Shown in pieces: positions 19,701 to 38,980 of a stretch of 64,000 nucleotides of DNA. How positions within the stretch are numbered: position 1 is the stretch's first letter; each line of letters starts with the position of its first letter. A program made the position numbers and the translations under genes. The DNA comes from a virus (taxonomy: Duplodnaviria > Caudoviricetes). The stretch covers positions 64,001 to 128,000 of the IMG/VR virus record IMGVR_UViG_3300032227_001172; one strand, given 5' to 3'. Below the pieces are notes generated by a model that saw nothing but the letters and a program-made list of their open reading frames with translations, was not told where the DNA came from and searched no databases.

Positions 19701-21332
19701 ATCGTCTCCATTAAGGTTATTATAGGATCCTAAATTATTATTATCTAAACCTGATACTCTTATTTTATTACCAAAGACTAATGATCCACTAGCATTAGAA
19801 ACCCAGTTATTAATACCAAAAACTGTGGTATTAGCCATAGCAGTACCAGCAGTTTTTTGATCAGTACCGACAATGGTGCCATCTGTACTTATAACAATTC
19901 CGCTTGTATTGTTTAATACGCCTACTATAAGATTATTATTGCTGTTGGTTGGTACTCTATTTCTTGGGCCGATAACAATATTATTAGCTATAGTACCAGA
20001 TAGATTATTATCATTGCCTACAATTAAAGATTCTGTAATTTGCGATACGGTGTTATTTTGTCCAACAAGAACTAAACTATCTGGTGCAGCATTAAGGGTT
20101 GAATTATTAATACCAATTAGTATACTGTCGTTAAGTCCGCTTGTGGTTTTAACCCCTAAGCCAAGAATCATAGAATTTTTACTACCGGTTAAACTAATAG
20201 CATTACCAATATAAATACCAGTATTAATACTCTGTGGGTTATTATCTCTACCAATACTAATAACGCTGTTGCCACTCACATCAGAATTATTACCATATAC
20301 AATATTTTGTGAACCAGAAAGATTAATATTGGAACCTATGGCTATATCATTAGCTCCACTAATATTGATATTACTACCAATATATATATTATCACTTCCA
20401 ATAACAGATGCTCCAACACCGAAACCGATAACAGATTCGCCAGAAATATTAGCATCTGATGTTAAGCCAACAAAATTATTACCTTTAACTTTAGTATCTT
20501 GACCTATAATGATATTACGACTACCTGTTGTAGATATATCTGTACCAAATCCTATGTTGTATAAACCAGATATTTTAGAATCTAGTGCGAAAATAATATT
20601 ACGCATCCCAGACACTGTGGTACTATTAGCGAAAACTAAAATTTTGTCACCACTAGCTACAATATCATTACCAACAATAATTCCGGTATTATGAATAGTA
20701 TTATTACTATTGCCTAATATAATATAAGATAAACCGCTACTAGTATTATTGAATCCTAAAATATCATAAAAATGTCCGGTTGGACTATTTAAACCTCCCA
20801 ATACAGTATTAACTAAGCTAGACCTAAAAACTTCCTTATTAACACCAGTATGATCAACAGTAAAAATTAATTCGCCGCTAGTTTGTTGAGATGCTGGATT
20901 TAAAATTCTGCTTTTAATTTGTCCATAAGTAATTGTGCTATAATTAGTATCTCTTCCAGCTAAGTCTATAGTAACAGGATAACTACCAGTTTCTGGTGGA
21001 GTTTGTGAATTATGAACAAATAGAATTCTAACACCAGTAGCGCAATTACTTTCATTTTCAACTTTTAGTCCATCATATGCACAATCTGTAACAACATGCA
21101 GAGTAGCATCTGGATTGGTAACATTAATGCCTAGTCTGCCTTTGGAAGCATCAAAGTACATAACATCCCCAGCAACCATTCCAGATACAGCAAAGTCTAT
21201 ATTGGAACGATTTTGATTAAATATTGTAGGAGATCCAGAAGTATCTGATAGAATAATATCATATATATTTCCTGATCCTATATTTAGTGTTCCAGATACA
21301 ATATTATTGTTGTTATCAAATGTTGCTGACAT
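16749..21332 (-). CDS. Tail fibre with YadA-head-like beta-roll repeats (1527 aa)
   Basis: SD GGAGA. Dozens of ~14-aa N-x-I-I-G-x-N-N repeats (about aa 190-630). Fibre motifs RLGINVTNPDATLHV and VGINTTNPRSTLDVSG; GYTLHADANGNATW, KYLKITDAAGNV, GLILAWDGSKW shaft motifs. Confidence 0.8.
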   Translation of the reverse strand: MSATFDNNNNIVSGTLNIGSGNIYDIILSDTSGSPTIFNQNRSNIDFAVSGMVAGDVMYFDASKGRLGINVTNPDATLHVVTDCAYDGLKVENESNCATGVRILFVHNSQTPPETGSYPVTIDLAGRDTNYSTITYGQIKSRILNPASQQTSGELIFTVDHTGVNKEVFRSSLVNTVLGGLNSPTGHFYDILGFNNTSSGLSYIILGNSNNTIHNTGIIVGNDIVASGDKILVFANSTTVSGMRNIIFALDSKISGLYNIGFGTDISTTGSRNIIIGQDTKVKGNNFVGLTSDANISGESVIGFGVGASVIGSDNIYIGSNINISGANDIAIGSNINLSGSQNIVYGNNSDVSGNSVISIGRDNNPQSINTGIYIGNAISLTGSKNSMILGLGVKTTSGLNDSILIGINNSTLNAAPDSLVLVGQNNTVSQITESLIVGNDNNLSGTIANNIVIGPRNRVPTNSNNNLIVGVLNNTSGIVISTDGTIVGTDQKTAGTAMANTTVFGINNWVSNASGSLVFGNKIRVSGLDNNNLGSYNNLNGDDIQNFGNSNFVVGDSNTAIGAKNDILGNSSISFNTSTTKRNQIFGNNNIVIGNNEVVVSGLSIGFDNEIYGVNNLIYGKNNTVGLVRYPCMVSGTNVVIIGDITAFNGGDRVLVGLYSPASQDTPVFIRSILDGTDPLTEEPLGVIKENLGSNFTTTLIVDSTISSTNTIEYYVKNTFDDIIHGQNPCSECFANLFAGYSSGYVLAYQNGNDEDDLVNNPRYGNTNIILGDNNKHTHSSGLVIGYRNAISGVNHLVIGNNISGYFNNAVQIGTNNRNKLVFNNDAIIFNTGLYQTNVYFNSAAPGNGNDSRVLYLDLSNNEVGINTTNPRSTLDVSGVLTTRNLRVGLGTVAGYTLHADANGNATWDLPVNLSGQNSGLLFMVNQDVGSGVRELIFNTGTKELSYLRADRDLQNDFNLIAGSVEEKALIINQSGLYLNNVASDWGYQFVLKGSGIQDEVNGDNSIYLIKTEVKDNAIRIHNVTGVSGIFKQMKIVDGVNLPVNLTGTVLRVNNIGNLVSQSFDRHSLLFNSSNYASTGNNALRYYADSQAVTIGTTGEPPLQANVSLVQGASNTYNNIILGSSNGVNTVFNNAGIGGNRFIVVSSGQAGTKKGLQYDANTGSFGINVDTVDNNWKVSSTSDTKYWYEAGKLVVDGKLRISSLQLSAGGKDLAGDNSVNKYLKITDAAGNVGLDTIDLSYQFSGIHPLRVTTDSQNEIVTVRLDTRNANQVTLGSTDNGLILAWDGSKWVQARGVRLVQPADGGSTDATAGLEFGNALSLNSCYNNHVFGGGGFASPGNANFDRMRGSSQLNQFYLRGRTLADNPSELLSNWHKDTSTTAAINNTISLQYTTEDNSGAATDHNRSLVWNYTINYSAIFNNNTANGFGAVAGEVNGAVLSYRNSDGSRTTTKLGSESHPQKRYTGVDYSSTDPITVRIENAGDNANVQRLAIIANGRPSYNGLWSVTVDINQVFMPSGVNFGNSDT

Positions 21333-21359: not shown

Positions 21360-24300
21360 TTAGATATCTATCGTACCGCCACCAAAATTAGGAGGTTCAA
21401 CACCTTCTAAATTATTAGCAACCCAATCCTTCATTGATGCATCAATATTCGCCATAATTACGCCTTGAATAGCTGGTTGTAGTGCTGCAAATAGCTGTGC
21501 TCCTGTAATATCTACTGTTATTCTAGCTGGTTGCATTGCCAAATTAATTTGTTGTGGTATATTAATACGCTGTAATTCTTTGATCAAATTACCAAATTGC
21601 AAGACAAAACCAGCTACTCCATTATTTACACCATTGGCATTATTACCTCCAGCTGCTGCAGGACCCATTGCTGGTTGCTGAAAGCCTTGTAATATAGTAC
21701 CAAATTGTACCAATGTTTGATTAACACCAGTAAGTAAAGTGCCAAATATTGTAAGTTGTTGATTAATATTGCCAAATGATTCAGGATTAAATGCTGCTTG
21801 GGATGCTTGGTTTACCCTATTGGCTAATACCATTTGTGCTTGTGGTTGCATTACAACAGGTCTTGGTGTCAGCATTTGCTGTTGTTGAGCTTGTTGAGCT
21901 TGTTGAGCTCGTTGAACTTCATCGATACGTCTTTCTCTGGGATTTCTATGTTGACCTCTCCTGACGAAAATACCATCGCTTGCATATACTATTCCTCCAT
22001 TTTGATAATAACCATCATTTATAGCGCGTAACACAGGAAGATGTCGTTGTGTAGCTTGACGATTAACAACAAATTCGCCGGGAGTTAGCATTGCGGGTAC
22101 TGTGTCGGTACCACGAGGCTGATAGTTTACTAATGTTCCTGTTGATGCATATATAGCTCCACCATGGCTTCTATAGTTTAACTTTGGTGGAGATGGAGGA
22201 AGTGGCGGTGGAGTCATTTTTACGCCTTCTCCACCCTTAGTTTCCATAAATCTTACTAAACTTTTAGATAGTTCTCTGGTTTGTTCATCTGTACCAGGGA
22301 AATCCTGGAAATTAGACGTAAGAAATTCTTGGCTCCCAGAATTTTCTGCAATATCTAAGTAGTTCTGAGAAGTAAAACCCCTATCCTTGCTAAGTCTTGT
22401 TATAGCATCCAAAACTCGATCATGAGCCGTTAAAGTTTTTGGACCCCTTACTCCAACCTCTGCCATGATATCAGGTTGTATAAGAGACGCATCTTCCCTT
22501 CCAAATGCTAGTCCTGCGTTTCCATAACTACCACCAGATCGACCACGAGTATAATTATCAGCCTCAGATCTTAATGTCGAATTGATCCTATCTTTATCGA
22601 TCACTACACCCATATTAATTAATGCATCATCTACTAGAGACATAAAACCATCTTCTCCCAACTCTGTTCTCATCTGTTCTATAGATCTCTTTTTATAATA
22701 GTCTGCGGTTCCTTCTAATATATCATTAACTCCATATCCCATATGGTTTCTTGGAGTTGCCATTTCATGATATTGAGAAGTTGTTCTTTTGAGGACTGAA
22801 TCGGCTACTTGATCTCTGTTGTTCTCCATCCAAACTTTTAATAGTTTTCCAGTAGGATCCTTCATTGTCTGATAATGATGAGCAGCCTCATGAGCCACTG
22901 TGCCAATCATCTGTTCTGGGGTAATCTTAGGAGATATTCTACTCAAACCTCCCTGATAATCGCCGAGAGCTCCAGGAACAGGTTCTGTAAATCTTGTTGT
23001 TAATGAATCAAATGTTTTAGGATCTGCTCCAGAATAATGAATACTTTCAGCCAAGTTGTCTCTGGCTTTATATACTAACTGATCAACACTTATTGGACCG
23101 TCAACATAGCGACCTCCAAATCCTTTCATTCCTACAAACGGAGTAATCGCTTCTGATATGGGTCTATTTAATGCTTTTTCAGCATATCTTATCTGTTTTG
23201 GTGTTAATCCTCCGGGACCAACCATTGAATCTCCAACCCTTGTTGGTGTGGGTATAGAAGGCAAAGCTAACGATAGTAACCCTCCTGTTGCAACATCTCC
23301 TGCTGTTGATCCTGCCATTGCTGATACGGGATTTTCATCCATTAGTTGATTAGCTATAGCGTTAGGCTTTGGAGCTCCCGTATTTAATGCTGTTTCTTGC
23401 ACCAACGATCCTACTCCAGCTCCAGTAATACCTCCAATCAAGCCTCCCGCAATAATTCCAGGAGGTCCTAATGGAGCAAGGGCAGCTGCCGCTATTATAG
23501 CACCAGAAGTAGCCCCCATTTGAGGAACAAAAGACTTAGCAGCTCCGGCAGCAAAAGCTGCTCTGCTACGCATGGCCGCATATTCTGGATGATTAAAAGA
23601 TGTTTCTGGTAAAAGTTTAAATTCATTTGCTGAAATTTCTCTGCCATTTTGATCCAAATAGGTTTTAGATCCACCACTCTGTGATATGTGCGGAATACCC
23701 ATTCGCTTTAAACTTCTAGAATACTCACTATCTCTTATAACAGAATTTTTATCGTGAACTCCTTCTTTAAAAGATCCTGATTGAACAGTTGGTGTTGGTA
23801 GTTTTGGTCTTGATGGATCAAATCCATCTTGAGCATAAACCACACCGCCCTTACTCAATACAATAGCTGCTCTAGCATAAAACTGATTATATAAACTATC
23901 TACATATTCTTGAGATAATAAACTTTTATTTTTTAAAGATTCTATAGTATCATAATAATGTTGTATTCCTGTTTGTATATCTAGGACACGCTCATTCTCA
24001 GGAACTGTTTTAACTCCACCTATAAATTCTGACCAGTTCGTTGGTGGTTTTACTTTTTTATTATCAATTAATGGTTTAAGTGTGCTACGCATAGCACCAA
24101 ACCTAACATCCATTTCTCTAGCTTTATAAAAATAATCAATCTCGTCTTCTGTTAAAGATCCGTCTTTTTGTAATGCATTATATAAAGGCTGCAGATATTG
24201 ATTTGTACTAATTGATGTTCTGTTATCTTTTGTTACAGCAGGGCTTGTGGTGTGTCTCTGTAAGTAATGTCTAAGTTCATGAGCTACTATAGCCCACCAT

Positions 24301-27300
24301 TCTTTATATTCTTGAGGATCCAATCTATTATTTTGGTTACCAACTCTGTTATCTTGATCAAAGGTTTGCCAAGGGGCGACAAAAACATTTTGTGGTCCAT
24401 TATCTTTTCCTATATTTTCTCCAAGTAAGCCTCCGCCAATAAGTTTGACATTAACAGGAACTTTTTTATCTAAAAGTTTATTTATAGGTGTTTTTTGACC
24501 ACCTAGTGATTGTAAGGCAGGAAATACTGATTCTGATTGCGGACCATTACCCATTTCTCTATTAGCCTGAATATTATCAGTATCCATATTTTGTCCAGAA
24601 CGCTCCATCGCATCTCTCAGCCTTGTTATTGTTCTATTGCCGATTTCCATTCCTTCTGTTGATATGTTTTGTTGTATTCTTTGTGCTTGTTGTGTTTGTT
24701 TTGTCGATCTTGACGCTGATTCGACTTGAACTCCATTTTGAGCATAAACTACACCGCCATTATTATAATAACCATCATTAATAGCATGGAGTAATGGTAA
24801 ATGTTTTTGTGTAGCCGCCCTATTAATTACAAATTCTCCTGGTGTTAACATGGCGGGAACAGTGTCTGTGCCTTTTGGTTGGTAATTAACCAGTGTGCCA
24901 TCGGCAGCATAAACCATACCCCCACGATACATTCCCATCGGTTGTCCAGGTTGTGGACCTTGGGGAGGTGCTGGTATTGGTTGTCCGGGCAATTGTGGTA
25001 TTACGCCACCTATTTGAGCAGCTATAGCTTGAATAGCATTATTCATCACAACACCAAAATCATCTAATACGTTCAAAATCTTGTCTGACGCTATAGCTTG
25101 AGCTTCACAGCATTGTTTTAGCATAGCAATAGTATAATCTAGTTTTTCTTGACTAGTAATATTATTTTGAGGAACTGCCTGAGTATTAGTTTGAATATTA
25201 TCTTTATTAATATATCCTAGTTTAGTACTTTCTTTAGCGTTCATCAAAACTTCATCGATACGTTTATCTGGAGCTGGTTCTATTTGTACTCCATCAACAT
25301 ATTTAGTTGGATCAGTAGTCATACTTGCGCCTCCGACACCACCATCCGCTAGATACTCTATTTTACCACCCCTGCTGCGATTGATACTTTGTAATAATGG
25401 TAAATGTTTTTGTGTTGCTGCTCTATTAACAACAAACTCTCCTGGCGTTAACATTGCTGGCACAGTATCTGTTCCTTGTGGCTGATATGGAACCAACATA
25501 CCAGTACTAGCATATATAATTCCGCCCCTACTCTTTGTTGCTACTTTATTAGATACTCTAATAGCTTCATTTTGTGTTTGTTGGGCAGGATATAAAAAGC
25601 CAGCTACATTTCCACCTCCCAGAGCATTCAGTCTTGCGATATTAAAGTCATTATTAGCTCGTGGATCAATAAGTCCTTGTTTTGCTGCTCTAGTATATAA
25701 ATTAGCTTGTGCCATTTTTTTCTGGCCAGGATTCAGCTTATCAAATCTTGATACTAATTTTTCGAATACTCCAATTTGTTTGGATGATCTAACGAAGGTG
25801 CTTTCAAACTGTTTGGTAATTTCTTTACGTTCTGCTGGAGAGGCCGAACTAATAATCTGTTGTAGTCTAGGATCATTCTCAACATTTTTGGATAAATTAT
25901 TTTGTTGTACTCTTAATGCTGCTACCACTTGAGAAGCTTTTGGACTTAGTGGCGCATTTTGAAGCATAGAGCTATATATTGATACTAATTCTTGTGAATT
26001 AAAAGGATTATATACGGCATCTATCATGTCTGGTGGTATACCAAGAGTTCCTAGAGCTTCTGGAGTTCTAGCACCGAATGGGAAATCTTTTTGTAGTTTT
26101 TTCTGTAGATTTTTTCTCCATGTTAAAAATACGCCAGGATTAGAAAATTTATCTGGAATAGGCATATTCATATACTTAGCAGTAGCACGTATCTGATCTC
26201 CTTGCTGTTTAGCTAATTTATCATTAGCTTTCTTTTCTTCTCTTTGCTGTGCTTTAGCTTGTACTAGTTGTCCAGATTTATATTGATCCCAAAGTTTTTG
26301 ACGACCCTCGGTATCTAGTTGATCATATTTTTTATCTTTATATTCTTGATTTATATTTTGATTGACTGTATTTAATTGACCATATAATGTATCTAGTCTA
26401 GCATTTTTTTCTTTTTCCCATTTGAGTTCATCACCAGCAAATGAATTATTTGGATCATATCTAGAAGCTTTTTCTTCTTGGATTTGCCTATATAATTCTT
26501 CACGGTCTGTGACAGACTTTTGGAATTCTGGACTAAACGCATTTGGTGGTAAACGCTTTATCCATGGAATAACACGGTTAGTGCTTTCGCTGGTTTCACG
26601 ATAAGACCCAAACTTTTGTTGTAAAAGTCTTTGTTCTGGAGTTAATGGCTTATCTAAACCAAAACCATCTAAAGACATTCTATTAGGATCAGTTGCATAA
26701 ATAGCATCGTCAATTCTACCTCTTTCTGCATCTATATTAGCTTGTCTTTGCATCTTAGCGTTTTGAGCAGCCTCAGCTTTCTCAAGATCTTCATTTGTGG
26801 CCCATTCCCTTAAACCAACAGCTTTTTTACGTTCAGTAAGTTTTGTTCTTTCACTCCATTGTTTATCAAAAAGAGCATCTGCATCTGCTTGTTCTCTAGC
26901 TTGTTGGTCAGCTTTTTGCACGGCGGCATCTTTATCCTCTGCTGCCATCTGACTTCTAGCCTCACTAGTTCGTCTTTGATAAGATGCTTCTTTTTGAATT
27001 TCTTCATTCAAAGTAGCATCATCAAATGTAGAACTGTTGAAGAATGATCCGGTTCTAACGAATAACTGTTCTTCATTTCTTGTGGCGCTAGCTCTTTTTT
27101 GATCTTGGTAAGCTTGAGCTTTACGAGCTTCTAAATCTGCAACTAGTCTATCTCCTGCTTGAGTACGAGGTTTTGCTTTTAAATCCTCAATTTTATTCTG
27201 CAATTTAGCTTGTTGTTCAATAAATAAAATCTCAGCAACAGATCGTCCTTCATAAGTTTCTCTTCCTCCGGCTCTTCTGGCAACTTCGGCTTCTCTGCTA

Positions 27301-30300
27301 TCTTCTAGATTAGATCTACCAGCATTTTCCATTCTGCGAGTAGTTTCTCTGCTAGTAGATAAGTTTTGTCTATCATTATAAAGACCAGTAGTTTCTCTTC
27401 CTACTGAACCTACAATTTGTGCACCTCCAGCGATCGAAGCCCCGATTAAAGCTCCAGGAGGACCAAAAACTCGTCCAGCTATTGCTCCTTCGCCTATGGC
27501 AAAACCGAACTCTGTTAAATTACCAGCAGCAAGGTCTGTATAGCCACCCCGCTCAACACCTAAAGCACCACCAATCATACTCCTTTCTGCTCCAACATCT
27601 CCTCCACCACTAACACTTCCAGTTAAAGCTCCTGTAATACCTCCTCCTTCATAAGCAACATACGCTCTTTGTGCTAATGTTAATATTGGACCTAGTACAC
27701 TAAAAGTCTTTCCTAAAAATTCTCTAGTAGCAGGACTAGTGGCGAGTTTAAATAAATCTAACTTTAATAAATTTGGTATATTCATTCCTTTAAGTTTTGG
27801 AATTTTTTCACCGATATAACTTAACAAATTTGAAAGACTTTGAAAATATTTCTCAGCAATAAAACCTTTAGCTGCATTTCCACCGGTTTGTACCGCAGAC
27901 CCACCCTTTTTACCGGCATTAAATAATACCTGAGTTTGAGCATCTATATCTGCTAATAAAGCCGTCGGATCAAGACCACCAGCAGCATAAACCACACCGC
28001 CACGACTAAATGTTTTACTATTTCCAGCACTACCATTAATAGCACTTAATAATCCTAAATTATTTTTAGTAGCTTGAGCATTAACTACAAATTCTCCAGG
28101 ACTTAACATAGCAGGGATAGTATCAGTACCTCGTGGCTGGTAATTTACATATGTTCCATCACTAGCATATACGATACCTCCACCAGATAATCTTTGAGTA
28201 TTAGTAGCTTGACCCGGAGTTCCTACTCCAAAACCAGCACCACGTAATTGTTCGGTGTCAAATTTTACTCTAACTTCACTTAATGCTTTTATAAATGTTT
28301 GATTAGCACTATCTAATATGTCTTTTTGTTTAGCTAATATTCCTTCATTTAGTGCTTGTGTGCTTGTAGCAAGTTCTGCTTGTTGTGCTTTTAACATTCC
28401 TTGTAAAGCTTGGATTTCTGGACTTTGTTCTGGAGGCTGTCTTAGTAACTCAATCATTTTTTGGAACATAGGATTATTCTGAAGTCCCATTCCTTGAGCT
28501 TTAGCAAAATTCTCTAATAAATCAGCTCTCATATTATTAATTTGTGGTCCCTCTAGACCACTCATTTGAGATAACTGATTAAACAACCCTAAAGCGCTCT
28601 TAGTTTGTCCAGCAAAAGCCTGTTGAGCAGCGGCGTATGCTTCTTGTTGTGTTGATCCATTTTGTAGCGCCTGAAAATAAGCTTGTTGAGCAGCTTGAGA
28701 CTGATTGATGGTTGTAATTTGACCATTCAATGTATTATTAAGTAAATTAAATGTGGAATTTAATTCTCCTAATTCTTGCGGGGTGCTTCCTACTAGTTGT
28801 TCGGCAAATGATCCTGCTGCTTGTTGGCGACCACTTAATTCTTGTTGTATTCTACCAATTTCGCCGATAATATCATTAATATTTCCTTCGATAGCTCCGG
28901 GTAAACTTTCTAATCCTTGTTCTGTTGCTTTTAGGGCGCTCTCAGTTTCTGCTAATTTTTTAGTCAGCGCTGTGAATCTAGCGTCTGCTTTAGGAATAGT
29001 AGAATCAAAAGTATTAGCAGTATTTTGTAAAGCTGATCTGATAGCATTTACTTCTTTTTGTAATGTATCTTTACGAGAAGCTAAATCTGTAGCATTTAAT
29101 TGTTCGGGAGCTACGCCAGCTCTAGTAGCGGCGACATTTCTTCTAGATTGAAGTCTTTCTCCTATGCCGACTCTTTGACCCAAAGCTTCTTTTAATGCTA
29201 TATTAGATTGTGTTAGGGTGTTTTGATAATTTGCTTGATTTTCTCTTAGATTTTGTTGTAGTTTACCATATTCATTAGCAGCATTGGCCGCAAAATTCAT
29301 AGCCTCTTGTACAAGCTTTAAACTATTCTGTAAAGCTTCAAAAGCTTGCTTGCTTGCTTGTAATTGATTGCTTAAGCCAGATTCTTCCAATAGTTTTTGA
29401 ATATCTATTTCCTCGCCACGTTTTAAAGATTCTTCAATTTTATCTTTAAATTCATTTCTCAATCTATCCCCAAGATCATTTCTGCCAAATACAGCATCTA
29501 TTTTTTGTGTTAATTGATTTATAATATTTGTTGCTACTACGGCCTGATTAGCTCCTGTTTGTTGTGCTCTAGCGGCTCCACCAGCCACGATATCTTCTGC
29601 GTCTAAACTGAATCTAGCTAATTGTTCAATAAATCCTCGATCTCTACCAGCAAATTGAGATGCTTGACCGATAGCAGTATTTTGTTGTTCTCTACCAAAT
29701 GCTCTTGGATTTTGTAAAACATTTAAAGCATCAAGATTCGCAGTAAATCCAGTTGCTCCAGATACTATTTTTTGCAAATCATCACTGGCCTGTTTTAAAC
29801 TTGCTGATGACGCATTGATGGCCTGATTAAGATTATCAAAAGTTCTTGTCATACTAGCAGATACTACATTTATTTTTTGCGTAAGCTTTTGTGCAGCTTT
29901 AGCTCTAGCAGAATCGGCAAATTCAGCATTAGCTAATGTTCTGGCTTGATCAACATATTTTCGTTTAACTCCTTGAATAGCTCTTTCCTTTAGTTGCTCT
30001 GCCATATTAGATTTTTGTATGGTAGTTACTTCTGCTTGGTATTCAGGATTAGCTTCTGCGATAGCCGTATATAAATCCGATAAAGCAACTCCTTGTTGTT
30101 GTAAAATATTAGTTACTTGATCGTAACTTTTACCCGCAGCAATCATACTACTAATTAAAGCTTGAGCCTCTTGCGCTGCTGCTTGTTGCTCCGCTGTTCT
30201 TGCTCCAGAAATTTCCGCTGATGATCTTTTATCTCCTCCTAAGTAACCAAAAGTAGCTGTGCTCAATGCTCTACTAACCATTCCTGGTTGTTCAGCCTTA

Positions 30301-33300
30301 AGATTGGAAGCCATCCGTTTTTCTTCTAAGGCTTGAATTTTTTGAAAATTAGTAACTAATGTTCCAGCATCTTCGGATCGTCCAGTTTTAACAAATCTTT
30401 CTCTCACTTGGGCAGATTGTTCTACTGCTTTATCTAGTTGTATGGTGGCTAGTTCAGATTCTTTTTGGGCTACAGCGGATGCGAATCCATCCACAGCAGC
30501 AACAGCGCCGACTAATGCTCCCGCAATAGCCCCAATGCCACCAAACTGAGCACCTATAGATGTGTATGTTGAAAAAGCAGTGGCTCCTCCAGCAATACCA
30601 GCACCCGTAGTTCCTCCGATACTGTCTCCAATTTGTTGTGCCAGCATTGGACCAGTGAAAGCTAAAGCCGTACCTAAATTAGATAAATTTAAACCTCCTG
30701 TTCTTCCGCCTCCACCAGCCATGTCTCCGTCATCCTGTGCTTGAGCAGAATTATTCTGTGCTGTAGTTAGTTGTTGTGTAGATGTATTAAGTTGCTGTTG
30801 TGATTGAGCGGTTTGCTTTACCTTTTGTATCAGTCCACCCCAAGCCTGTGACACTCTTTGTTCCGCAGCTGCTCTTGCATCTGCAACAGAAACACTATTG
30901 TTAGTAGCTCGAATTTGTCTTGTTAATGCATTAACTTGCTGCCTTTGCTGTTGATACACGAGTTCTGCGGCTCTCTGGTCTCCTGTCTCTGCTGCTTGTT
31001 TAGCACCAAACAACACTTGAGATTCAGGCAAAACCCTACCAGATGCTTCAGCATATGCATCATCAAAAGACATAGTAGGATTAGCTTTTGCTATTTGGCT
31101 TACCACTTTTGCCATCATGTTTTCAACTGCTTGTTCTAATGCTTTAGCTGCGTCTTCTCCAACTCTAGATGCAGTAGACGAGAATTCAAAAACATCTCCA
31201 CCATTATTAAATTTCTGTACTCCAACTCTTCCTCCTCTATTGAAACCAAGAGCTTTTGTTGCCTTGGCACGTAGGATAAAACTGCCTTCTGGCAAGCTGG
31301 TGCGAATACTATCGCTCGTACCGCTACCTGGACCTTTAAATACGCTAATACCACCCTTACTAAACCGTCCCATACCATTACGATCAGCCTGATTCATACG
31401 TTTTAAGTTACCATAGCCAATGCTCTTAGCTGTTTTGGGTGGCACATAGGCTTCGCCATTACTAACTAGAGCAGGTACAGATCCTCCGTCAGCAAACTGC
31501 TGAACATCAGCCCATAGGTTATGTCTACCCATCAAGTCTACATATTTAGCTTTATCTACTCTGAATCTAGAACGAGGAGAAAGGATAAATTCATTTTCTT
31601 CACTAGGCTGTTTCATGAAGAATGTTTCCATCTGGCCTGTTCTTGGATTGATATCTTTTTTAGTTACATTAATTTTACGATCTTTAAATTGTTCAGCGAC
31701 ATCTACTCCTTGACCATTTTTCTTAGTCCTAACAGTAAGCATAGCTGCCCAATTATCTTCAGATCTTGGGGCGTTATCTAAAAAAGATTTAGCAACTGCA
31801 TAATTTTTACTCGTAGAAACAAAACCTGGAAGACTAAAGGCTTTACCAACAATTTTAGCTACTTCTTGAGCATAGTAGGTTTGTCTATTATTATATTTTG
31901 TATCTTTTGGAATATCTGGACTTTTATTTAAACCAGTATCCATAGCAAATTTATCAAAGGCATTACGAGATAATGAACTATATAGTTCCTCTGGTGCTGG
32001 TGTTCGTAGCTGTCGTAAATTCTTCACGTCCGAAGCTAACCCTCTTCTCTCATTCTTACTTAATGATTTACTATTAGATAGACCGAGATTAATTGGAGCA
32101 GCGTCTGTGAAATATTTTTCTAGTGTATCTTTTGGTTGTGATGATCCTCCAGCTGCAAACTTTACTCTACCACCGTTATTAAATTTATTAGGATTTTCAG
32201 TAAAATATCTCTCGAACTCAGTTCTTGCTTTTTCAAAAGAACTACCATCTAGTGTTCTTTTAACTTCTGTTTCTATATTAGGTGGAAGATGAAATAAAGA
32301 AGATGCGTTTCCGAGTCCATCAGGAAAATCTATGGCCCTATTACTTTCCAAAGTATCAATATTTAATCGATATCCTAATTTTTGAGCTAATGCCTGCTCT
32401 AATAAGGCCCCCTCAATATTGCCTTCTCCAGTTTTAGTATACATTTTTGTATCGTCAAAAGATTCTGGTTCTTTATATCGATATGTATCAATTCCTCTTT
32501 TTTTTGCTACTTTAATATTGTCTTCATTATCATCAATAAATCTTTCAAAAGCTGCTAAATTATCTGCTTTTGCTTTAGCAATATTAGTTCCTAATCCTTG
32601 ACTAACCCCGGTAACATCTGAAGTTTGATATGGTAGTCCGAATCTATTTAATGTTGTAGCAACTAGATCAGCTGTGCTCTGTGGTCTGGCTGTTAATACT
32701 CTAGTAAATCTTCTAACGATTCCAGGATTTTTTTTCTCGACCTCGGCTAATCTTTGTGCAAGTCTTGTCGGTTTGGCTTGAGCTAAGCTATCCGCTACTT
32801 TATCTCTTATAGAATAACTAGGAAGATCCTCTGCTCCGGTCTTATCAACCATTTTTGTACCAAATGCTAATGTTTCATCAAAATCTATAGCTAATGGTCT
32901 AAAAGGTCCAACTATTTGTTTGTCTGTCTGACCAAGTGGCCCCAAAGCTTCAGTAGCAGTAGTATCTTTAGCAAAATCTAAACTGGTTTGCCTTTGTTTT
33001 TCTCTTAGCCTTTGAACGTCTGATAAATATTCTTGACCAAACCCACGAATCATAGCAACATATTTTTGACCATCAAGTGGGCTATCTGGTCCAGTACTTA
33101 GTGTCCATTCCTTATCTTTTGCATAGCCTATTGGCTGTAATCCTGCTATAGCAACTTTCCTTATGCCTCTTATGCGATCTTCTTCATTTTTTGCTGCTGC
33201 TTTAGCTTTATTAAGAATACCAGCAACAACCAATGAATCAAGTTTACCAGAAATAATACTGTCTTTTCTAATTTTTCTTTGTAAATTTCCTGGAATACTA

Positions 33301-36300
33301 ATACCACGGCTTTTTATACCAGCTTCACCACCAAGATCCGACAATGTTTTTACCATAGCATCAGCTATAGCTTGTTCGATAGACTGATCTTGTTTTTTAT
33401 TTCTTAAAGCAATCTGACCAATCTCTCCATATAGTCCGACACTTGTTGTATCAGACTCTACCAAGTCTCCGTCCATGAATTTTTGAATAATTCCTCCTGT
33501 GGCTTTATTTTTAGGACGAATTGGTTTGCCTAACCCTTCTATTATTTTTTGATCATATACAACTGCCATTTGTTCATCTAAGTCTTTACCAGCTATTTTT
33601 TTGGCGCCACGTATATTCCTTTTAACCATTTCTTCTCTTATTGCTTGAGATGCTCTTTCTAGTGCTTTGTATTGAGGATCAACCTCTCCCTTCTTGCGAA
33701 GTTCAGGTTCCATTTTTTCTGCTAAATGTGCAGTCATAAATTCTACAACACTGCCGAAAGGCGCTGTCTTTAAATTTATTCCACTAGTCGGTATCTTTTT
33801 GGTTTTAAAAATATCTTGAATAGCCGGTAGAACTTTTTTAGATATTGGTGCAGATGCTTCTGGAAAACCAGATATTCCATCTTTAATTTTTACAGGATAA
33901 ATACCGCCCTTACCTCCAGTTCGCCGCATACCTCTTCTTGCATAGTCAGCAGCAAGACCTTCTTTATTTAATCCAAAATAAGCTCCAGCGCCTAGTAATC
34001 CACCGGGACTTTTAGTTACATCTAATTCCTCTAAATCATGACCGGTACCATGATAAAGTGTTTGATCAGTTACTTTACCACCCCTAGGGAATCTTTGAAC
34101 TTGTCCTCCCATTAATGTGTCTGCTATCTGATTTGGCACAAAATCTCTAGATTGTGTCCCACCAGTACCTGTCGCAGAACGAGAACTAATCTCTACAGGC
34201 CTAGGAGACCATAGTTTTTCTCTAGTCAGTATACTTTTAGCTATGTCCGCAAATCTATAAATTTGTTCATCTCTAGAAATATATCCTGGTGGCTTGGGAG
34301 GATCTGCTTTTCGCCCTACCTCTTCTTTAAAAGCTTTTCTAATTTCATTTTCTACTTTAGTAGGTATATTGGCTATGCCTTGTCTTTTGACTCTACTACT
34401 AATTTTATCAGCATTGGTTCCATATAATAAAAAAGGACTATTCAATGCTTGCTGAAAATCTGGTAATGTTATATGCCCAGAACCTTTTCTGCGCATAGCA
34501 TTATTAAAAGACTGTGGTAATGCTATAGTAAAATTAGGTAAAACTTGTATATCTTCACCATTTAAAATACTTCTAATTCTTGTACCAATCACTCTTTGTC
34601 CAGATACTCGCTCGTATTCTTGTGGGGTTACTGGCCTACCATACCTTGTAGGATCTATAGCATGCGCTCTAACAGTAGGTTCTTGCGGATCATATCTTAT
34701 AGCTGTAGCATCTTTTACTGCCCGTTGTTTTTCTTCGTCTGTACGATTATCTTGAACTATAGGATACAATCCATCTTCTGGCCTTGAGTTTCTTATGCGT
34801 GCTCTTCTACTAACGCCAGCTGCTGTATTGCTGCTTCCCGCCATAAATTTTTGAATAGACCCACCACCATTATTCATTCTAACAAGATTACCAGCACCAT
34901 ACTTTTGTACAGCGCTCTTTCTCATGACAAACTCACCAGGAGTTAGCATAGCAGGAACACTGTCAGTATTTCCGGCACCGGGTACACTGCCACCTTTTGC
35001 AAAATGACGAACATAGCCACCACTACTTAATCTTTGATTTTGTGCTCCTGTTCTAATACCACCAGCAAAACCTCTACCAAACTGTGTTAATGCTTGAAAA
35101 CCTTTAATAGCAAAAATAGCAGTTAGTGCCGGTAAGGCTCCTTTAACAGCATCGGCAACCGATATGAACGCGCTTGCTAAATCTAATCCTAATCTGACTA
35201 AATCTTGAAAACCTTGAGATTGTCCAATACTACGAACTAAAGCACTAAATTCTTCACGAACTTTAGCCATCTGATTAGCTAAACTAAGTTGTGCTGTAGC
35301 AGCATCTTTAGCTAATGATCCTTGTCCCTGTTGAGCAACATTTAATGCTTGTTGTGCTGTTGTAAATTGTTGAATAAGCGGAATAACTTTACCGATCTGT
35401 CTAAAACCACCAAGCTCTTCAACGATTCTGCTAAATCTGATGTCTCTAGGATCTAATGAGGATAAACCTGCTGCTAGTCTTCTAACAGCCTCATATGGTC
35501 CTACGAATTTACCTTCAAGATCTGTTAATGCTACTCCATAAGATTTAAGAGCATTAATAGTGTCTTCTCTTTGAATACGAGTAAAAATAGTTCTTAAGCC
35601 AGTAGCAATAGTTTCGGCGCTTTCACGAGTAGTAGCTCTAACGCTTGTAAATACAGCAATAAATTCATTTAGTGCGTCTGTTCCTTGGCTTACTCCCTTA
35701 CTAGCAGCAGCAAACACACCACCAGTTCTTGAAATGGCCGTAACAATATCACTAGCTTCAACAGCAAACTTAGCAGCAACAGCATTGATACTGCCCAAAG
35801 CTCCTTCTAATTGACTTGCACTAATACCAAACTGTCTCATTAATGCAATACTGCCTTCTACAGTACTATTTAGATCATCAAACGATGGAGCTAATGCCGA
35901 TCTAGCCAAAGCCTGTAAGGCTATCGATGTATCTCTAGCACTCAAACCGGCCTGCGCCAAGGTTTGTGCCACATTAATCAAATCCTGTGACGCAACACCG
36001 AGACCCGTGGATAGTTTGGTGATATTACTAACCAAAAATCCAAGACTTTGTACTGGAGTATCTGTAACCTGAGAAACTTTTACTAGCTGTTGATTAAATT
36101 GAATAAAGTCTTGAGTAGCATTAGTAATAGCATTAGATGCTTTATATATTATACCAGTAACAGTAGCAAATGCGGCAAAACGTCTAACAGCCAAGGCTGA
36201 CTGTCTACCAAACTCAGTAAATTCTGACGTAGCACCACGAGTAGCCGTTGCAGCTCTGTTATTGGCTTGTGTAGCTTGGTTAGCTCCTTGAGCAACCTGA

Positions 36301-36596
36301 TTCATGGTTTGCGGAATATTTTGTAAATTATTCGATAATAATCTTGCAGCGTTACCTAGTTGAGTAATAGATCTCGATGTAGTATCTGCTAAGGTTCTTG
36401 TTTGTTGCAGTGTTCTATTGAAGTCTTGAAAAGATCTACTAATAGTATTAATTTGTCTATTTGTCTGTTGATTGATCTGAACAGTAACATTAGTGTTTAT
36501 GCTACCTAGCTGGCGACGTAAATCACTAACGACCTGTCTAATATTAGACGGTCCTCGTAGATTAATTTCAGCAGTAAGATTAAATCCTCTAGCCAT
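21360..36596 (-). CDS. Tape measure protein (TP901-type core) carrying multiple enzymatic cargo domains, 5078 aa
   Basis: SD GAGGA. N-terminal TMP core (...INVAQTLAQAGL...INAVAAKFAVEASDIVTAISRTG...RESAETIATGLRTIFTRI), long Ala/Gln/Leu coiled coils, hydrophobic Gly/Ala segments, TMP-type PAMLTPGEFV modules, canonical position after tube and chaperone genes. Confidence 0.93.
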   Translation of the reverse strand: MARGFNLTAEINLRGPSNIRQVVSDLRRQLGSINTNVTVQINQQTNRQINTISRSFQDFNRTLQQTRTLADTTSRSITQLGNAARLLSNNLQNIPQTMNQVAQGANQATQANNRAATATRGATSEFTEFGRQSALAVRRFAAFATVTGIIYKASNAITNATQDFIQFNQQLVKVSQVTDTPVQSLGFLVSNITKLSTGLGVASQDLINVAQTLAQAGLSARDTSIALQALARSALAPSFDDLNSTVEGSIALMRQFGISASQLEGALGSINAVAAKFAVEASDIVTAISRTGGVFAAASKGVSQGTDALNEFIAVFTSVRATTRESAETIATGLRTIFTRIQREDTINALKSYGVALTDLEGKFVGPYEAVRRLAAGLSSLDPRDIRFSRIVEELGGFRQIGKVIPLIQQFTTAQQALNVAQQGQGSLAKDAATAQLSLANQMAKVREEFSALVRSIGQSQGFQDLVRLGLDLASAFISVADAVKGALPALTAIFAIKGFQALTQFGRGFAGGIRTGAQNQRLSSGGYVRHFAKGGSVPGAGNTDSVPAMLTPGEFVMRKSAVQKYGAGNLVRMNNGGGSIQKFMAGSSNTAAGVSRRARIRNSRPEDGLYPIVQDNRTDEEKQRAVKDATAIRYDPQEPTVRAHAIDPTRYGRPVTPQEYERVSGQRVIGTRIRSILNGEDIQVLPNFTIALPQSFNNAMRRKGSGHITLPDFQQALNSPFLLYGTNADKISSRVKRQGIANIPTKVENEIRKAFKEEVGRKADPPKPPGYISRDEQIYRFADIAKSILTREKLWSPRPVEISSRSATGTGGTQSRDFVPNQIADTLMGGQVQRFPRGGKVTDQTLYHGTGHDLEELDVTKSPGGLLGAGAYFGLNKEGLAADYARRGMRRTGGKGGIYPVKIKDGISGFPEASAPISKKVLPAIQDIFKTKKIPTSGINLKTAPFGSVVEFMTAHLAEKMEPELRKKGEVDPQYKALERASQAIREEMVKRNIRGAKKIAGKDLDEQMAVVYDQKIIEGLGKPIRPKNKATGGIIQKFMDGDLVESDTTSVGLYGEIGQIALRNKKQDQSIEQAIADAMVKTLSDLGGEAGIKSRGISIPGNLQRKIRKDSIISGKLDSLVVAGILNKAKAAAKNEEDRIRGIRKVAIAGLQPIGYAKDKEWTLSTGPDSPLDGQKYVAMIRGFGQEYLSDVQRLREKQRQTSLDFAKDTTATEALGPLGQTDKQIVGPFRPLAIDFDETLAFGTKMVDKTGAEDLPSYSIRDKVADSLAQAKPTRLAQRLAEVEKKNPGIVRRFTRVLTARPQSTADLVATTLNRFGLPYQTSDVTGVSQGLGTNIAKAKADNLAAFERFIDDNEDNIKVAKKRGIDTYRYKEPESFDDTKMYTKTGEGNIEGALLEQALAQKLGYRLNIDTLESNRAIDFPDGLGNASSLFHLPPNIETEVKRTLDGSSFEKARTEFERYFTENPNKFNNGGRVKFAAGGSSQPKDTLEKYFTDAAPINLGLSNSKSLSKNERRGLASDVKNLRQLRTPAPEELYSSLSRNAFDKFAMDTGLNKSPDIPKDTKYNNRQTYYAQEVAKIVGKAFSLPGFVSTSKNYAVAKSFLDNAPRSEDNWAAMLTVRTKKNGQGVDVAEQFKDRKINVTKKDINPRTGQMETFFMKQPSEENEFILSPRSRFRVDKAKYVDLMGRHNLWADVQQFADGGSVPALVSNGEAYVPPKTAKSIGYGNLKRMNQADRNGMGRFSKGGISVFKGPGSGTSDSIRTSLPEGSFILRAKATKALGFNRGGRVGVQKFNNGGDVFEFSSTASRVGEDAAKALEQAVENMMAKVVSQIAKANPTMSFDDAYAEASGRVLPESQVLFGAKQAAETGDQRAAELVYQQQRQQVNALTRQIRATNNSVSVADARAAAEQRVSQAWGGLIQKVKQTAQSQQQLNTSTQQLTTAQNNSAQAQDDGDMAGGGGRTGGLNLSNLGTALAFTGPMLAQQIGDSIGGTTGAGIAGGATAFSTYTSIGAQFGGIGAIAGALVGAVAAVDGFASAVAQKESELATIQLDKAVEQSAQVRERFVKTGRSEDAGTLVTNFQKIQALEEKRMASNLKAEQPGMVSRALSTATFGYLGGDKRSSAEISGARTAEQQAAAQEAQALISSMIAAGKSYDQVTNILQQQGVALSDLYTAIAEANPEYQAEVTTIQKSNMAEQLKERAIQGVKRKYVDQARTLANAEFADSARAKAAQKLTQKINVVSASMTRTFDNLNQAINASSASLKQASDDLQKIVSGATGFTANLDALNVLQNPRAFGREQQNTAIGQASQFAGRDRGFIEQLARFSLDAEDIVAGGAARAQQTGANQAVVATNIINQLTQKIDAVFGRNDLGDRLRNEFKDKIEESLKRGEEIDIQKLLEESGLSNQLQASKQAFEALQNSLKLVQEAMNFAANAANEYGKLQQNLRENQANYQNTLTQSNIALKEALGQRVGIGERLQSRRNVAATRAGVAPEQLNATDLASRKDTLQKEVNAIRSALQNTANTFDSTIPKADARFTALTKKLAETESALKATEQGLESLPGAIEGNINDIIGEIGRIQQELSGRQQAAGSFAEQLVGSTPQELGELNSTFNLLNNTLNGQITTINQSQAAQQAYFQALQNGSTQQEAYAAAQQAFAGQTKSALGLFNQLSQMSGLEGPQINNMRADLLENFAKAQGMGLQNNPMFQKMIELLRQPPEQSPEIQALQGMLKAQQAELATSTQALNEGILAKQKDILDSANQTFIKALSEVRVKFDTEQLRGAGFGVGTPGQATNTQRLSGGGIVYASDGTYVNYQPRGTDTIPAMLSPGEFVVNAQATKNNLGLLSAINGSAGNSKTFSRGGVVYAAGGLDPTALLADIDAQTQVLFNAGKKGGSAVQTGGNAAKGFIAEKYFQSLSNLLSYIGEKIPKLKGMNIPNLLKLDLFKLATSPATREFLGKTFSVLGPILTLAQRAYVAYEGGGITGALTGSVSGGGDVGAERSMIGGALGVERGGYTDLAAGNLTEFGFAIGEGAIAGRVFGPPGALIGASIAGGAQIVGSVGRETTGLYNDRQNLSTSRETTRRMENAGRSNLEDSREAEVARRAGGRETYEGRSVAEILFIEQQAKLQNKIEDLKAKPRTQAGDRLVADLEARKAQAYQDQKRASATRNEEQLFVRTGSFFNSSTFDDATLNEEIQKEASYQRRTSEARSQMAAEDKDAAVQKADQQAREQADADALFDKQWSERTKLTERKKAVGLREWATNEDLEKAEAAQNAKMQRQANIDAERGRIDDAIYATDPNRMSLDGFGLDKPLTPEQRLLQQKFGSYRETSESTNRVIPWIKRLPPNAFSPEFQKSVTDREELYRQIQEEKASRYDPNNSFAGDELKWEKEKNARLDTLYGQLNTVNQNINQEYKDKKYDQLDTEGRQKLWDQYKSGQLVQAKAQQREEKKANDKLAKQQGDQIRATAKYMNMPIPDKFSNPGVFLTWRKNLQKKLQKDFPFGARTPEALGTLGIPPDMIDAVYNPFNSQELVSIYSSMLQNAPLSPKASQVVAALRVQQNNLSKNVENDPRLQQIISSASPAERKEITKQFESTFVRSSKQIGVFEKLVSRFDKLNPGQKKMAQANLYTRAAKQGLIDPRANNDFNIARLNALGGGNVAGFLYPAQQTQNEAIRVSNKVATKSRGGIIYASTGMLVPYQPQGTDTVPAMLTPGEFVVNRAATQKHLPLLQSINRSRGGKIEYLADGGVGGASMTTDPTKYVDGVQIEPAPDKRIDEVLMNAKESTKLGYINKDNIQTNTQAVPQNNITSQEKLDYTIAMLKQCCEAQAIASDKILNVLDDFGVVMNNAIQAIAAQIGGVIPQLPGQPIPAPPQGPQPGQPMGMYRGGMVYAADGTLVNYQPKGTDTVPAMLTPGEFVINRAATQKHLPLLHAINDGYYNNGGVVYAQNGVQVESASRSTKQTQQAQRIQQNISTEGMEIGNRTITRLRDAMERSGQNMDTDNIQANREMGNGPQSESVFPALQSLGGQKTPINKLLDKKVPVNVKLIGGGLLGENIGKDNGPQNVFVAPWQTFDQDNRVGNQNNRLDPQEYKEWWAIVAHELRHYLQRHTTSPAVTKDNRTSISTNQYLQPLYNALQKDGSLTEDEIDYFYKAREMDVRFGAMRSTLKPLIDNKKVKPPTNWSEFIGGVKTVPENERVLDIQTGIQHYYDTIESLKNKSLLSQEYVDSLYNQFYARAAIVLSKGGVVYAQDGFDPSRPKLPTPTVQSGSFKEGVHDKNSVIRDSEYSRSLKRMGIPHISQSGGSKTYLDQNGREISANEFKLLPETSFNHPEYAAMRSRAAFAAGAAKSFVPQMGATSGAIIAAAALAPLGPPGIIAGGLIGGITGAGVGSLVQETALNTGAPKPNAIANQLMDENPVSAMAGSTAGDVATGGLLSLALPSIPTPTRVGDSMVGPGGLTPKQIRYAEKALNRPISEAITPFVGMKGFGGRYVDGPISVDQLVYKARDNLAESIHYSGADPKTFDSLTTRFTEPVPGALGDYQGGLSRISPKITPEQMIGTVAHEAAHHYQTMKDPTGKLLKVWMENNRDQVADSVLKRTTSQYHEMATPRNHMGYGVNDILEGTADYYKKRSIEQMRTELGEDGFMSLVDDALINMGVVIDKDRINSTLRSEADNYTRGRSGGSYGNAGLAFGREDASLIQPDIMAEVGVRGPKTLTAHDRVLDAITRLSKDRGFTSQNYLDIAENSGSQEFLTSNFQDFPGTDEQTRELSKSLVRFMETKGGEGVKMTPPPLPPSPPKLNYRSHGGAIYASTGTLVNYQPRGTDTVPAMLTPGEFVVNRQATQRHLPVLRAINDGYYQNGGIVYASDGIFVRRGQHRNPRERRIDEVQRAQQAQQAQQQQMLTPRPVVMQPQAQMVLANRVNQASQAAFNPESFGNINQQLTIFGTLLTGVNQTLVQFGTILQGFQQPAMGPAAAGGNNANGVNNGVAGFVLQFGNLIKELQRINIPQQINLAMQPARITVDITGAQLFAALQPAIQGVIMANIDASMKDWVANNLEGVEPPNFGGGTIDI
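21972..22176 (-). repeat. TMP linker module copy 6 (YRSHGG-AI-YASTG...GTDTVPAMLTPGEFVVN...YYQNGG-IV-YASDG)
   Basis: Direct translation; near-identical peptide to copies 3-5. Confidence 0.95.
24732..24934 (-). repeat. TMP linker module copy 5 (MYRGG-MV-YAADG...GTDTVPAMLTPGEFVIN...YYNNGG-VV-YAQNG)
   Basis: Direct translation. Confidence 0.95.
25340..25537 (-). repeat. TMP linker module copy 4 (KSRGG-II-YASTG...GTDTVPAMLTPGEFVVN...RSRGG-KIE-YLADGG)
   Basis: Direct translation; shares an exact 21-nt stretch (taatggtaaatgtttttgtgt) with copy 5. Confidence 0.95.
27975..28193 (-). repeat. TMP linker module copy 3 (RLSGGG-IV-YASDG...GTDTIPAMLSPGEFVVN...FSRGG-VV-YAAGG)
   Basis: Direct translation. 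Confidence 0.95.
31199..31500 (-). repeat. TMP linker module copy 2, divergent double/permuted form (VPALVSNGEAYV...GPGSGTSDSIRTSLPEGSFIL)
   Basis: Two degenerate copies of the module bounded by FADGG, FSKGG, FNRGG and FNNGG. Confidence 0.8.
34861..35033 (-). repeat. TMP linker module copy 1 (RLSSGG-YVRH-FAKGG...GNTDSVPAMLTPGEFVM...RMNNGG)
   Basis: Direct translation. Confidence 0.95.
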
Positions 36597-37550: not shown

Positions 37551-37569
37551 ATAATACTAACCCTTTCTT

Positions 37570-38906: not shown

Positions 38907-38980
38907 TTATCAATATAATCCATCCTTTTCTTCCCACAATAATTTCTTAAACTATACCTAGCCTATCATCTCCATTAAAC

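Follow-up and report, generated by a model that had tools for sequence, protein, structure and literature searches.

Gly-Gly motifs of a giant phage tape measure protein flank a conserved junction module that delimits exchangeable cassettes

We analyzed a 64,000-nt stretch of tailed-phage DNA (the window; bases 64001-128000 of the IMG/VR record IMGVR_UViG_3300032227_001172), in which one giant gene, P0001, encodes a protein with repeated Gly-Gly (GG) motifs. The source record, a single virus sequence of 230,691 bp, carries direct terminal repeats and has an estimated completeness of 100%. Profile matches mark P0001 as a tail tape measure protein (TMP) of the TP901/PhageMin_Tail type: amino acids (aa) 192-383 match PF10145 PhageMin_Tail (E 6e-22, 78.9 bits against a curated cut-off of 33.2), and the protein also matches TIGR01760 tape_meas_TP901 (E 3.8e-20, 72.2 bits against a cut-off of 28.8) and several PHROG TMP families. 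The gene lies within a co-oriented block of large virion-type open reading frames (ORFs), with tail-fibre PHROG matches at 42269-45577 and 49681-50823. Judging from sequence comparison, we identify the GG motifs as the flanks of a conserved, uncatalogued, and ancient TMP junction module that delimits exchangeable cassettes.

The initial annotation, made by a model from the sequence, had listed 17 GG-containing strings as domain-boundary marks. All 17 are present in the P0001 translation, from RLSSGG at aa 522 (nt 35033) to YASDG at aa 4875 (nt 21972), with coordinates in agreement, and the three Pro-rich linkers it mentioned are found at aa 1025-1030, 3873-3886, and 4794-4804. Motif counts in P0001 were judged against 500 residue shuffles. 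The strict motif GG-x(2,6)-[FY]-x-x-[GDNT]?G occurs at 17 overlapping, or 15 distinct, sites (shuffle mean 1.25, maximum 6), and the loose pattern [FYLMKR]xxGG occurs 31 times, compared with 11.5 in shuffles. A proteome-wide comparison showed the strict motif to be 12-fold denser in the TMP (3.35 per 1000 aa) than in the other 229 ORFs (0.27 per 1000 aa); no enrichment was seen in the other giant ORFs (4,589, 2,631, 1,527, and 1,307 aa).

Most of the motifs had been read as tandem doublets. The strings themselves stand, but the doublets at aa 526/577, 2805/2866, 3691/3743, 3892/3947, and 4812/4867 correspond to the N-flank and C-flank of a single module of about 70 aa, with the layout GG-hh-YAxxG … GTDTVPAMLTPGEFVVN … IN-G … [FY]xxGG (h, hydrophobic). 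The N-flank reads [KR][AS]xGG-hh-[YF]AxxG and the C-flank [FY]xxGG-hh-Y; between them lies a highly conserved 30-residue core, GTDTVPAMLTPGEFVVN…ATxxxLPLLxxIN, which the annotation had not mentioned. A consensus derived from 863 copies in 232 proteins starts with [KR][AS]xGG-[MIV][IV]-Y-A-x-x-G and passes, after about 8 residues, into the core P-x-G-T-D-T-V-P-A-M-L-T-P-G-E-F-V-V-N-x-x-A-T-x-x-x-L-P-L-L-x-x-I-N-x-G, followed by a few residues and [YF][YF]xxGG-h-V-Y. Across these copies, conservation reaches at least 85% at about 14 core positions, with D, L, and G at ~100%. P0001 contains six full modules (aa 516, 1731, 2796, 3682, 3887, and 4804), one degenerate half-module (aa 1700), and four lone flank motifs (aa 827, 1031, 1472, and 4247). 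The six full copies match the hidden Markov model (HMM) of the module at independent E-values (i-E) of ~1e-27 to 1e-37, and the core pattern [ST]D[ST]x[PR]xxLxxG[ES]F is found six times in P0001 and never in the shuffles. When the module profile was run against every genomic ORF of 50 aa or longer, no match was obtained outside the TMP. No Pfam or NCBIfam family covers the module, including its copy in phage lambda, and a literature search for the motif in TMPs returned no description.

The resemblance of GTDTVPAML..GEFVV to the GDSMxP…GDxVxV box had suggested a self-cleaving S24/S26 (LexA/signal peptidase) fold. This candidate was rejected: the LexA matches given by a 6-sequence profile (E 0.7-0.9) were gone with a 143-sequence profile, the 143 copies showed no S24/S26 Pfam match, the module lacks a conserved Lys, and it has only ~70 aa, compared with a beta fold of ~130 aa with a Ser/Thr-Lys dyad.

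The idea that the motifs mark domain boundaries was borne out by the closest relative, by breakpoints across the family, by a recurring cassette, and by a structure model. The closest relative, P0002 (6,542 aa), shares blocks of 94-98% identity with P0001, and homology breaks at P0001 aa 841, 1032, 4265, and 4804, each of them at a lone flank or module, with different cassettes between. A 98%-identity block stops at aa 841 (flank aa 827-840) and homology restarts at aa 1032 (flank aa 1031-1043); likewise, a 94%-identity block stops at aa 4265 (flank aa 4247-4258) and the next one begins at aa 4804 (module 6). For the family as a whole, we collected from 83 giant TMPs the internal ends of blocks with 85% identity or more and a length of 200 aa or more, 186 ends in all. 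Block ends lay within 15 aa of a motif or module in 69% of cases, compared with 14.6% for random positions (maximum of 200 random draws, 21.5%), and the median distance was 0 aa rather than 153 aa.

One cassette, aa 1485-1700, is found again in 20 relatives, in varied neighbourhoods. It bears [FY]AxGG at both edges, with GG invariant or nearly so, and similarity in the alignment ends right past the motif wherever the adjoining segment differs. In an AlphaFold model of aa 1465-1740, a folded domain (aa 1486-1702) has a predicted local distance difference test (pLDDT) score of 80-94, and the motif stretches on either side score below 50. Relatives swap cassettes at modules and lone flanks, which together fence off every cassette in P0001: two ADP-ribosyltransferase (ART)-like, one phosphatase-like, and two zincin-like domains, and two long helical or hydrophobic 'tape' segments.

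This coincidence of cassette breakpoints with motifs is also what would be seen if the motifs were recombination scars, persisting as microhomology for cassette shuffling and having no biochemical role. However, module copies within P0001 share only 63-79% DNA identity, with no long exact repeats. Comparison of five copies over the 15-codon core gives 150 codon pairs, of which 97 differ; 78 of these 97 differences (80%) are synonymous. The combination of low DNA identity with mostly synonymous core differences indicates purifying selection on the peptide. Repeats that are neither recent nor homogenised speak against a role at the DNA level alone. Small TMPs, lambda gpH among them, also keep the module as a single copy, although shuffling plays no part there. 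These results indicate that the module copies are maintained by protein-level selection and not by DNA homogenisation, and we consider the scar explanation very improbable.

The architecture of P0001 is listed in Table 1; segment counts are from single-sequence phmmer searches against 217 giant relatives. Individual cargo cassettes were found in 1-69 of the 217, and conservation across the family is strongest in the modules. The most widespread cassette (aa 1044-1474; 69 of 217) holds the HAD-like stretch. In the ART cassette, the R…STS…ExE signature is intact and the R53, STS, and ExE columns are invariant (alignment A3), and a Foldseek search with the model returned C3-like and VIP2 ARTs as top matches (E 6e-10, probability 1.0). 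The domain at aa 1486-1702 is accordingly predicted to have a C3/VIP2-like ADP-ribosyltransferase fold with an intact catalytic signature. For the two HExxH cassettes (aa 3960-4800; window 22197-24719 (-)), ESM-atlas comparisons gave no more than leads: LPD23, SprT-like, and DUF6782 at 0.84-0.91 for the HELRH cassette, and LPD23/LPD1 at 0.89 for the HEAAH cassette. The first 600 aa (N-terminal domain, hydrophobic stretch, and module) and the last 275 aa (module and C-terminal region) together seem to resemble a small TMP, into which ~4,200 aa of cassettes and extra 'tape' have seemingly been inserted between duplicated modules. By its position, and by comparison with the solved TMP C-termini of T5, JBD30, Douge, and lambda, the C-terminal region is presumed to be a tail-tip plug.

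Table 1. Features of the tape measure protein P0001 and their positions in the window
Feature	Residues	Window position (nt)	Strand	Evidence
Tail tape measure protein (TMP) gene P0001		21360..36596	(-)	single ORF, 5,078 codons
Conserved TMP N-terminal region	aa 1-515	35052..36596	(-)	195/217 relatives
Gly-rich hydrophobic stretch, just before module 1	aa 466-497	35106-35201	(-)	hydropathy scan
Junction module 1 (RLSSGG-YVRH-FAKGG … TDSVPAMLTPGEFV … RMNNGG-GSIQK-FMAG)	aa 516-596	34809..35051	(-)	HMM i-E 3e-27, alignment A1
Lone flank (LMGG-QVQR-FPRGG)	aa 827-840	34077..34118	(-)	regex
Variable cassette, weak ART-PolyVal match	aa 846-902	33891..34061	(-)	PF18760 E 0.0038, 18.4 bits vs cut-off 31.2; 5/217 relatives
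Lone flank (KATGG-IIQK-FMDG), KPIRPK before	aa 1031-1043	33468..33506	(-)	regex
HAD/polynucleotide-kinase-phosphatase-like stretch	aa ~1300-1395	32412..32699	(-)	phrog_415 E 6e-4; DxDxT-like AIDFDET
Lone tandem flank (KFNNGG-RVK-FAAGG)	aa 1472-1484	32145..32183	(-)	regex; model pLDDT ~30
ADP-ribosyltransferase cassette	aa 1485-1698	31503..32144	(-)	PF03496 E 3e-5
Degenerate half-module (QFADGG-SVPALVSNGEAYV) and junction module 2	aa 1700-1730 and aa 1731-1810	31167..31499	(-)	HMM i-E 7.5e-27, alignment A1
Conserved central segment	aa 1811-2795			102/217 relatives
Gly-rich hydrophobic stretch, inside central segment	aa 2013-2044	30465..30560	(-)	hydropathy scan
Junction module 3	aa 2796-2875	27972..28211	(-)	HMM i-E 4e-36
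Second Gly-rich hydrophobic stretch	aa 3048-3066	27399-27455	(-)	hydropathy scan
Junction module 4	aa 3682-3761	25314..25553	(-)	HMM i-E 5e-37
Junction module 5, Pro-rich linker before	aa 3887-3956	24729..24938	(-)	HMM i-E 5e-35
HExxH cassette (HELRH, aa 4106), zincin-like lead		23859..24719	(-)	motif; 1/217 relatives
Lone flank (LSKGG-VV-YAQDG)	aa 4247-4258	23823..23858	(-)	regex + position-specific scoring matrix (PSSM), 24.9 bits
Gly-rich hydrophobic stretch, precedes HEAAH cassette	aa 4356-4400	23397-23531	(-)	hydropathy scan
Second HExxH cassette (HEAAH, aa 4569)		22197..23234	(-)	PF20573 DUF6782 E 0.0036, below cut-off
Junction module 6, TPPPLPPSPPK before	aa 4804-4876	21969..22187	(-)	HMM i-E 1.2e-36
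C-terminal region	aa 4877-5078	21363..21968	(-)	38/217 relatives

The module is widespread. At least 377 proteins of 2,800-7,900 aa, most of them with PF10145 and encoded on 100-235-kb contigs, match the C-terminal half of P0001, and giant TMPs carry a mean of 6 modules (range 3-10, first 120 relatives listed). An exhaustive search with the module profile yielded 19,245 representatives of clusters built at 50% identity, and 799 of these reached E ≤ 1e-30. In cultured phages, 130 records contain a match; wherever a listed match is annotated, it lies in a TMP gene, one of these genes being labelled "endolysin", and two of the listed records are unannotated. Nodularia phage vB_NspS-kac65v151 and Brevundimonas phage vB_BpoS-Marchewka are among the phages that match. 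The hosts include Gordonia, Mycobacterium, Nodularia, Brevundimonas, Ralstonia, Burkholderia, and Shewanella. In ordinary TMPs, PHROG coordinates place the module near the C-terminus. The profile matches Fionnbharth gp22 at an i-E of 4e-16 and Douge gp16, from a mycobacteriophage and with modules at ~957-1038 and ~1412-1467, at 1e-11.

Two of these proteins and contigs deserve a separate description. The gp22 of Mycobacterium phage Fionnbharth, a 1,391-aa TMP whose gene is annotated 'endolysin', has a single module at aa 872-943; it directly precedes a YKWGG…DCSG stretch resembling a cell-wall hydrolase motif, for which Pfam gave no hydrolase match. In the relative L004 (ENA ERZ1283841 k141_475596), the TMP frame of 6,614 codons is broken by two in-frame TAA codons (6375-6377 and 7956-7958) and was called as three genes (2,611, 512, and 3,948 aa); read-through, a defective variant, or an assembly error is possible. 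Natural gene fission at modules was rejected, because the L004 breaks fall inside domains and the TMP of another relative, P0042, merely ends at a contig end.

We then compared P0001 with TMPs of known fate. Lambda gpH is cleaved in a Gly-rich region into gpH* and a gpHC of ~14 kDa that remains at the tail tip, and its cut site has been unmapped for 50 years (PMC12617516). The module profile matches gpH at aa 751-787 (domain i-E 6e-6), the full segment being aa ~733-785, a region not covered by Pfam Tape_meas_lam_C (aa 627-701). As in P0001, this module has both flanks (FATGG … VHRGEFVF … YATGG) and follows a Gly-rich hydrophobic stretch; by contrast, gpH has 853 aa, a single module, and no cargo cassettes, and several core residues invariant in the giant family (TDT, N44) are not retained. 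Given a gpHC of 13.4-14.6 kDa, cleavage in lambda would fall at about aa 710-725, immediately ahead of the module.

In T5, mass spectrometry has placed the pb2 cut, which yields pb2* and pb2C, after R1127 (PMC10038345). The cut sequence is R|AEGGMMYPG, with cleavage three residues ahead of GG. The best pb2 match to an 8-position ungapped flank profile was RAEGGMMY at 1127 (15.5 bits; 0.4% of shuffles reach this score). The cut parts the hydrophobic channel-forming portion from a small piece with reported muralytic activity, and P0001 likewise has the order flank, then cargo; the resemblance differs in covering 8 residues only and in being one site instead of many. Homology of pb2C to the module beyond these 8 residues was rejected, since neither a 12-residue PSSM nor an HMM of the N-terminal half of the module was significant. 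As the 8-residue span was chosen afterwards, the pb2 resemblance is suggestive only. The segment that follows the cut, aa 1128-1160 (GGMMYPGVSYQMGEHGTEVVTPM), contains a peptide described as a metallopeptidase motif; by eye, it also looks like the start of the module (GG-hh-Y … YQ … GT[DE]xV.P.M), a likeness without statistical support.

By analogy with these two TMPs, the explanation that we favour, at a probability of roughly 40%, is limited proteolysis at the flanks, which would act as hinges like those of T5 and lambda, together with a docking role for the core; the TMP would then be a polyprotein-like cargo train. The initial annotation had proposed protease sites; what stands of that proposal is the non-random marking of junctions and a plausible tie to TMP maturation, through the lambda gpH homology and the T5 cut at R1127, and what finds no support is the GG-specific Cys protease (see below). 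Cutting at the P0001 flanks is plausible on the same comparison. The flank would be an exposed, disordered hinge acting as a limited-proteolysis site. Cleavage would fall a few residues to the N-terminal side of GG-hh-Y, the situation in T5 pb2 and probably in lambda gpH, either once the tail tube surrounds the intact ruler or after ejection. Docking of the conserved core to a tail partner that is itself conserved (chaperone, tube lumen, or hub) would probably position the site. In this way, the giant TMP would be turned into a train of individual proteins leaving C-terminus first, with envelope-acting pieces in front, channel-forming hydrophobic segments behind them, and NAD-using enzymes last, just before the DNA. 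The protease would not be a phage-encoded enzyme of the C39, C48, or C5 type.

Several observations weigh against this proteolytic explanation. The precedents for cleavage are lambda and T5, with none for P0001 or any multi-module TMP. The lambda cut is placed only to about ±20 aa, and the T5 link is an 8-residue span picked after the 12-residue PSSM had failed to reach significance; the full module is undetectable in pb2 by HMM. Sequence profiles gave no candidate GG-directed protease in the genome, and embedded HExxH cassettes occur in just 1-7 of the 217 relatives, so they cannot be the general processing enzyme. The breaks in the L004 TMP are TAA codons inside conserved domains and not at modules. 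Finally, the core is far more conserved than usual protease sites; conservation beyond what a protease site needs fits partner binding as well or better.

Partner binding is central to the possibility that the joints stay uncut, which we rank nearly as likely as the proteolytic explanation and which takes in the chaperone-binding tags offered as an alternative by the initial annotation. The Gly flanks would be flexible hinges, and the core would be a repeated docking element for the tail assembly chaperone, tube lumen, or hub, keeping three or six chains in register and holding unfolded cargo in the tube; the cargo would act tethered to the ejected TMP. The high conservation of the ~14 core positions counts in its favour. 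An AlphaFold monomer of the module alone is mostly disordered (mean pLDDT 65, one short helix), giving no usable fold, which suits folding on a partner. In JBD30, residues 1022-1066 are predicted by the authors to form a hook that may bind the baseplate (PMC11445458), and the module match in JBD30 gp46 (aa 1015-1087) encloses these residues. Of the solved structures, those of Douge gp16 and JBD30 gp46 alone have a sequence match, and the module region is unmodelled in both. Docking through the core leaves the lone flanks unexplained, however, because they lack a core yet are conserved delimiters, and the two TMPs known to be cut carry the module or a flank-like peptide in the region of cleavage.

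That a giant TMP with cargo can remain full-size in virions is shown by gp96 of Thermus phage P23-45, a 5,002-aa TMP fused to a virion RNA polymerase (PMC10770324). Like P0001, gp96 is a giant enzyme-carrying TMP, and it provides a published precedent for a cargo-bearing TMP of this size. It differs in having no junction module, no flank motif, and one N-terminal cargo instead of a string of cassettes; it is hence silent on the role of the module, and we dropped it as a test case because its uncut state is uninformative on this point. In the three cases compared, the cut TMPs (lambda and T5) have a module or flank element, and the uncut gp96 has none.

We next considered which protease the genome might supply. 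The analogy drawn by the initial annotation with GG-specific Cys proteases found no counterpart: sequence profiles, the only kind used here, for C39 (PF03412), C48 (PF02902), C5 (adenain; PF00770), Prok-JAB (PF14464), and NlpC/P60, which were also run on 14 control genomes, gave no match at E ≤ 1 in the complete 230.7-kb genome. S78, S77, and S49 likewise had no match in the complete genome. The P0001 motifs are internal, up to 4,800 aa from the N-terminus, unlike the short N-terminal leader ending in GG that goes with C39 processing. The sole protease-family match is a ClpP-family ORF of 226 aa (PF00574, E 1e-17) at G000:C1:14923-15402 (+), ~49 kb before the window; it lies far from the tail block, and its role may be head maturation or other.

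Protease sites with the signature hydrophobic-x-x-G-G are well established, and the C-flank consensus [YFL][AS]xGG loosely resembles them; lambda, moreover, encodes a JAB-domain tail assembly protein, gpK. Both points could be taken to favour dedicated sites at which a phage Cys protease (C39, adenain C5, Ulp C48, pS273R, or JAB type) cuts right after Gly-Gly. Besides the lack of profile matches in the genome, this proposal is at odds with the mapped T5 cut, R|AEGG, which precedes GG, and with the N-flank, whose P4 residue is K/R and not hydrophobic in about half of the copies. We therefore give it very little credence.

A bolder form of the proteolytic explanation can be formulated, in which the module is a general TMP maturation signal that specifies the lambda gpH and T5 pb2 cuts and has been multiplied in giant TMPs into a ruler-polyprotein, cut after tube formation into at least 10 proteins that are stored in the tail lumen and injected in a set order ahead of the DNA; taken as a whole, we regard it as unlikely. 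TMP cutting is known in lambda and T5, and the module adjoining the lambda cut region offers a concrete, profile-detectable target for mutation. The module is present in about 19,000 protein clusters and has no entry in Pfam or NCBIfam. Across hundreds of uncultured 100-235-kb phages, it delimits freely exchanged enzyme cassettes within giant TMPs of 3,000-7,900 aa, among them the intact C3-like ADP-ribosyltransferase of P0001, which suggests that long phage tails may double as magazines of pre-made host-manipulating enzymes. If the polyprotein reading is true, the tail would be an effector delivery route distinct from head delivery; if the module is an uncut docking joint, it would still explain how long cargo-laden rulers are organised and how they gain cargo at fixed junctions.

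Similar arrangements are found in other systems. In polymorphic toxins, VENN in CdiA and DPxGL in Rhs mark the point before the toxin at which cassettes are swapped, and the Rhs motif is also an autoproteolytic site. The module shares with them a short conserved peptide at the point of cassette exchange; its sequence and the delivery machine are unrelated, and these toxins have one junction each, compared with 10 or more in P0001. In the polyvalent proteins of phages and conjugative elements, several enzymes share one polypeptide thought to be delivered with DNA, and embedded metallopeptidases have been proposed to process it (Iyer et al. 2017, PMC5512222). Such proteins typically contain ART domains and zincin-like peptidases, and P0001 contains weak ART-PolyVal and LPD23/LPD1 leads. 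By contrast, tape measure proteins go unmentioned in that paper (0 occurrences of 'tape'), which describes no repeated delimiter module (PMC5512222), and the P0001 matches to polyvalent-specific families are below threshold, several effector-type cassettes being present nonetheless.

The surroundings of the TMP gene are very poorly charted. Its immediate neighbours have almost no PHROG or Pfam family matches, so that neither the chaperone nor the hub could be named; at 7776-21332 and 36681-42255 (-) in the window, nearly all TMP-adjacent ORFs are without a match to either database. No sheath family was detected in a search for one, which fits a non-contractile tail without proving it. The tail block is bordered by two more giant ORFs, at 50835-63998 (-) and 3-7772 (-), whose lengths over the whole genome are 4,589 and 2,631 aa; both lack GG-motif enrichment and the module. 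The unmatched neighbours include ORFs of 289 and 97 aa at the chaperone position (36681-37550 and 37570-37863) and downstream ORFs of 1,527, 580, 550, 1,307, and 533 aa, with the hub position at 16749-21332; about 200 ORFs of the genome are unannotated. The sole match of the 1,527-aa ORF is to a beta-roll (LbR_Ice_bind), and one relative has the same gene sizes downstream of its TMP.

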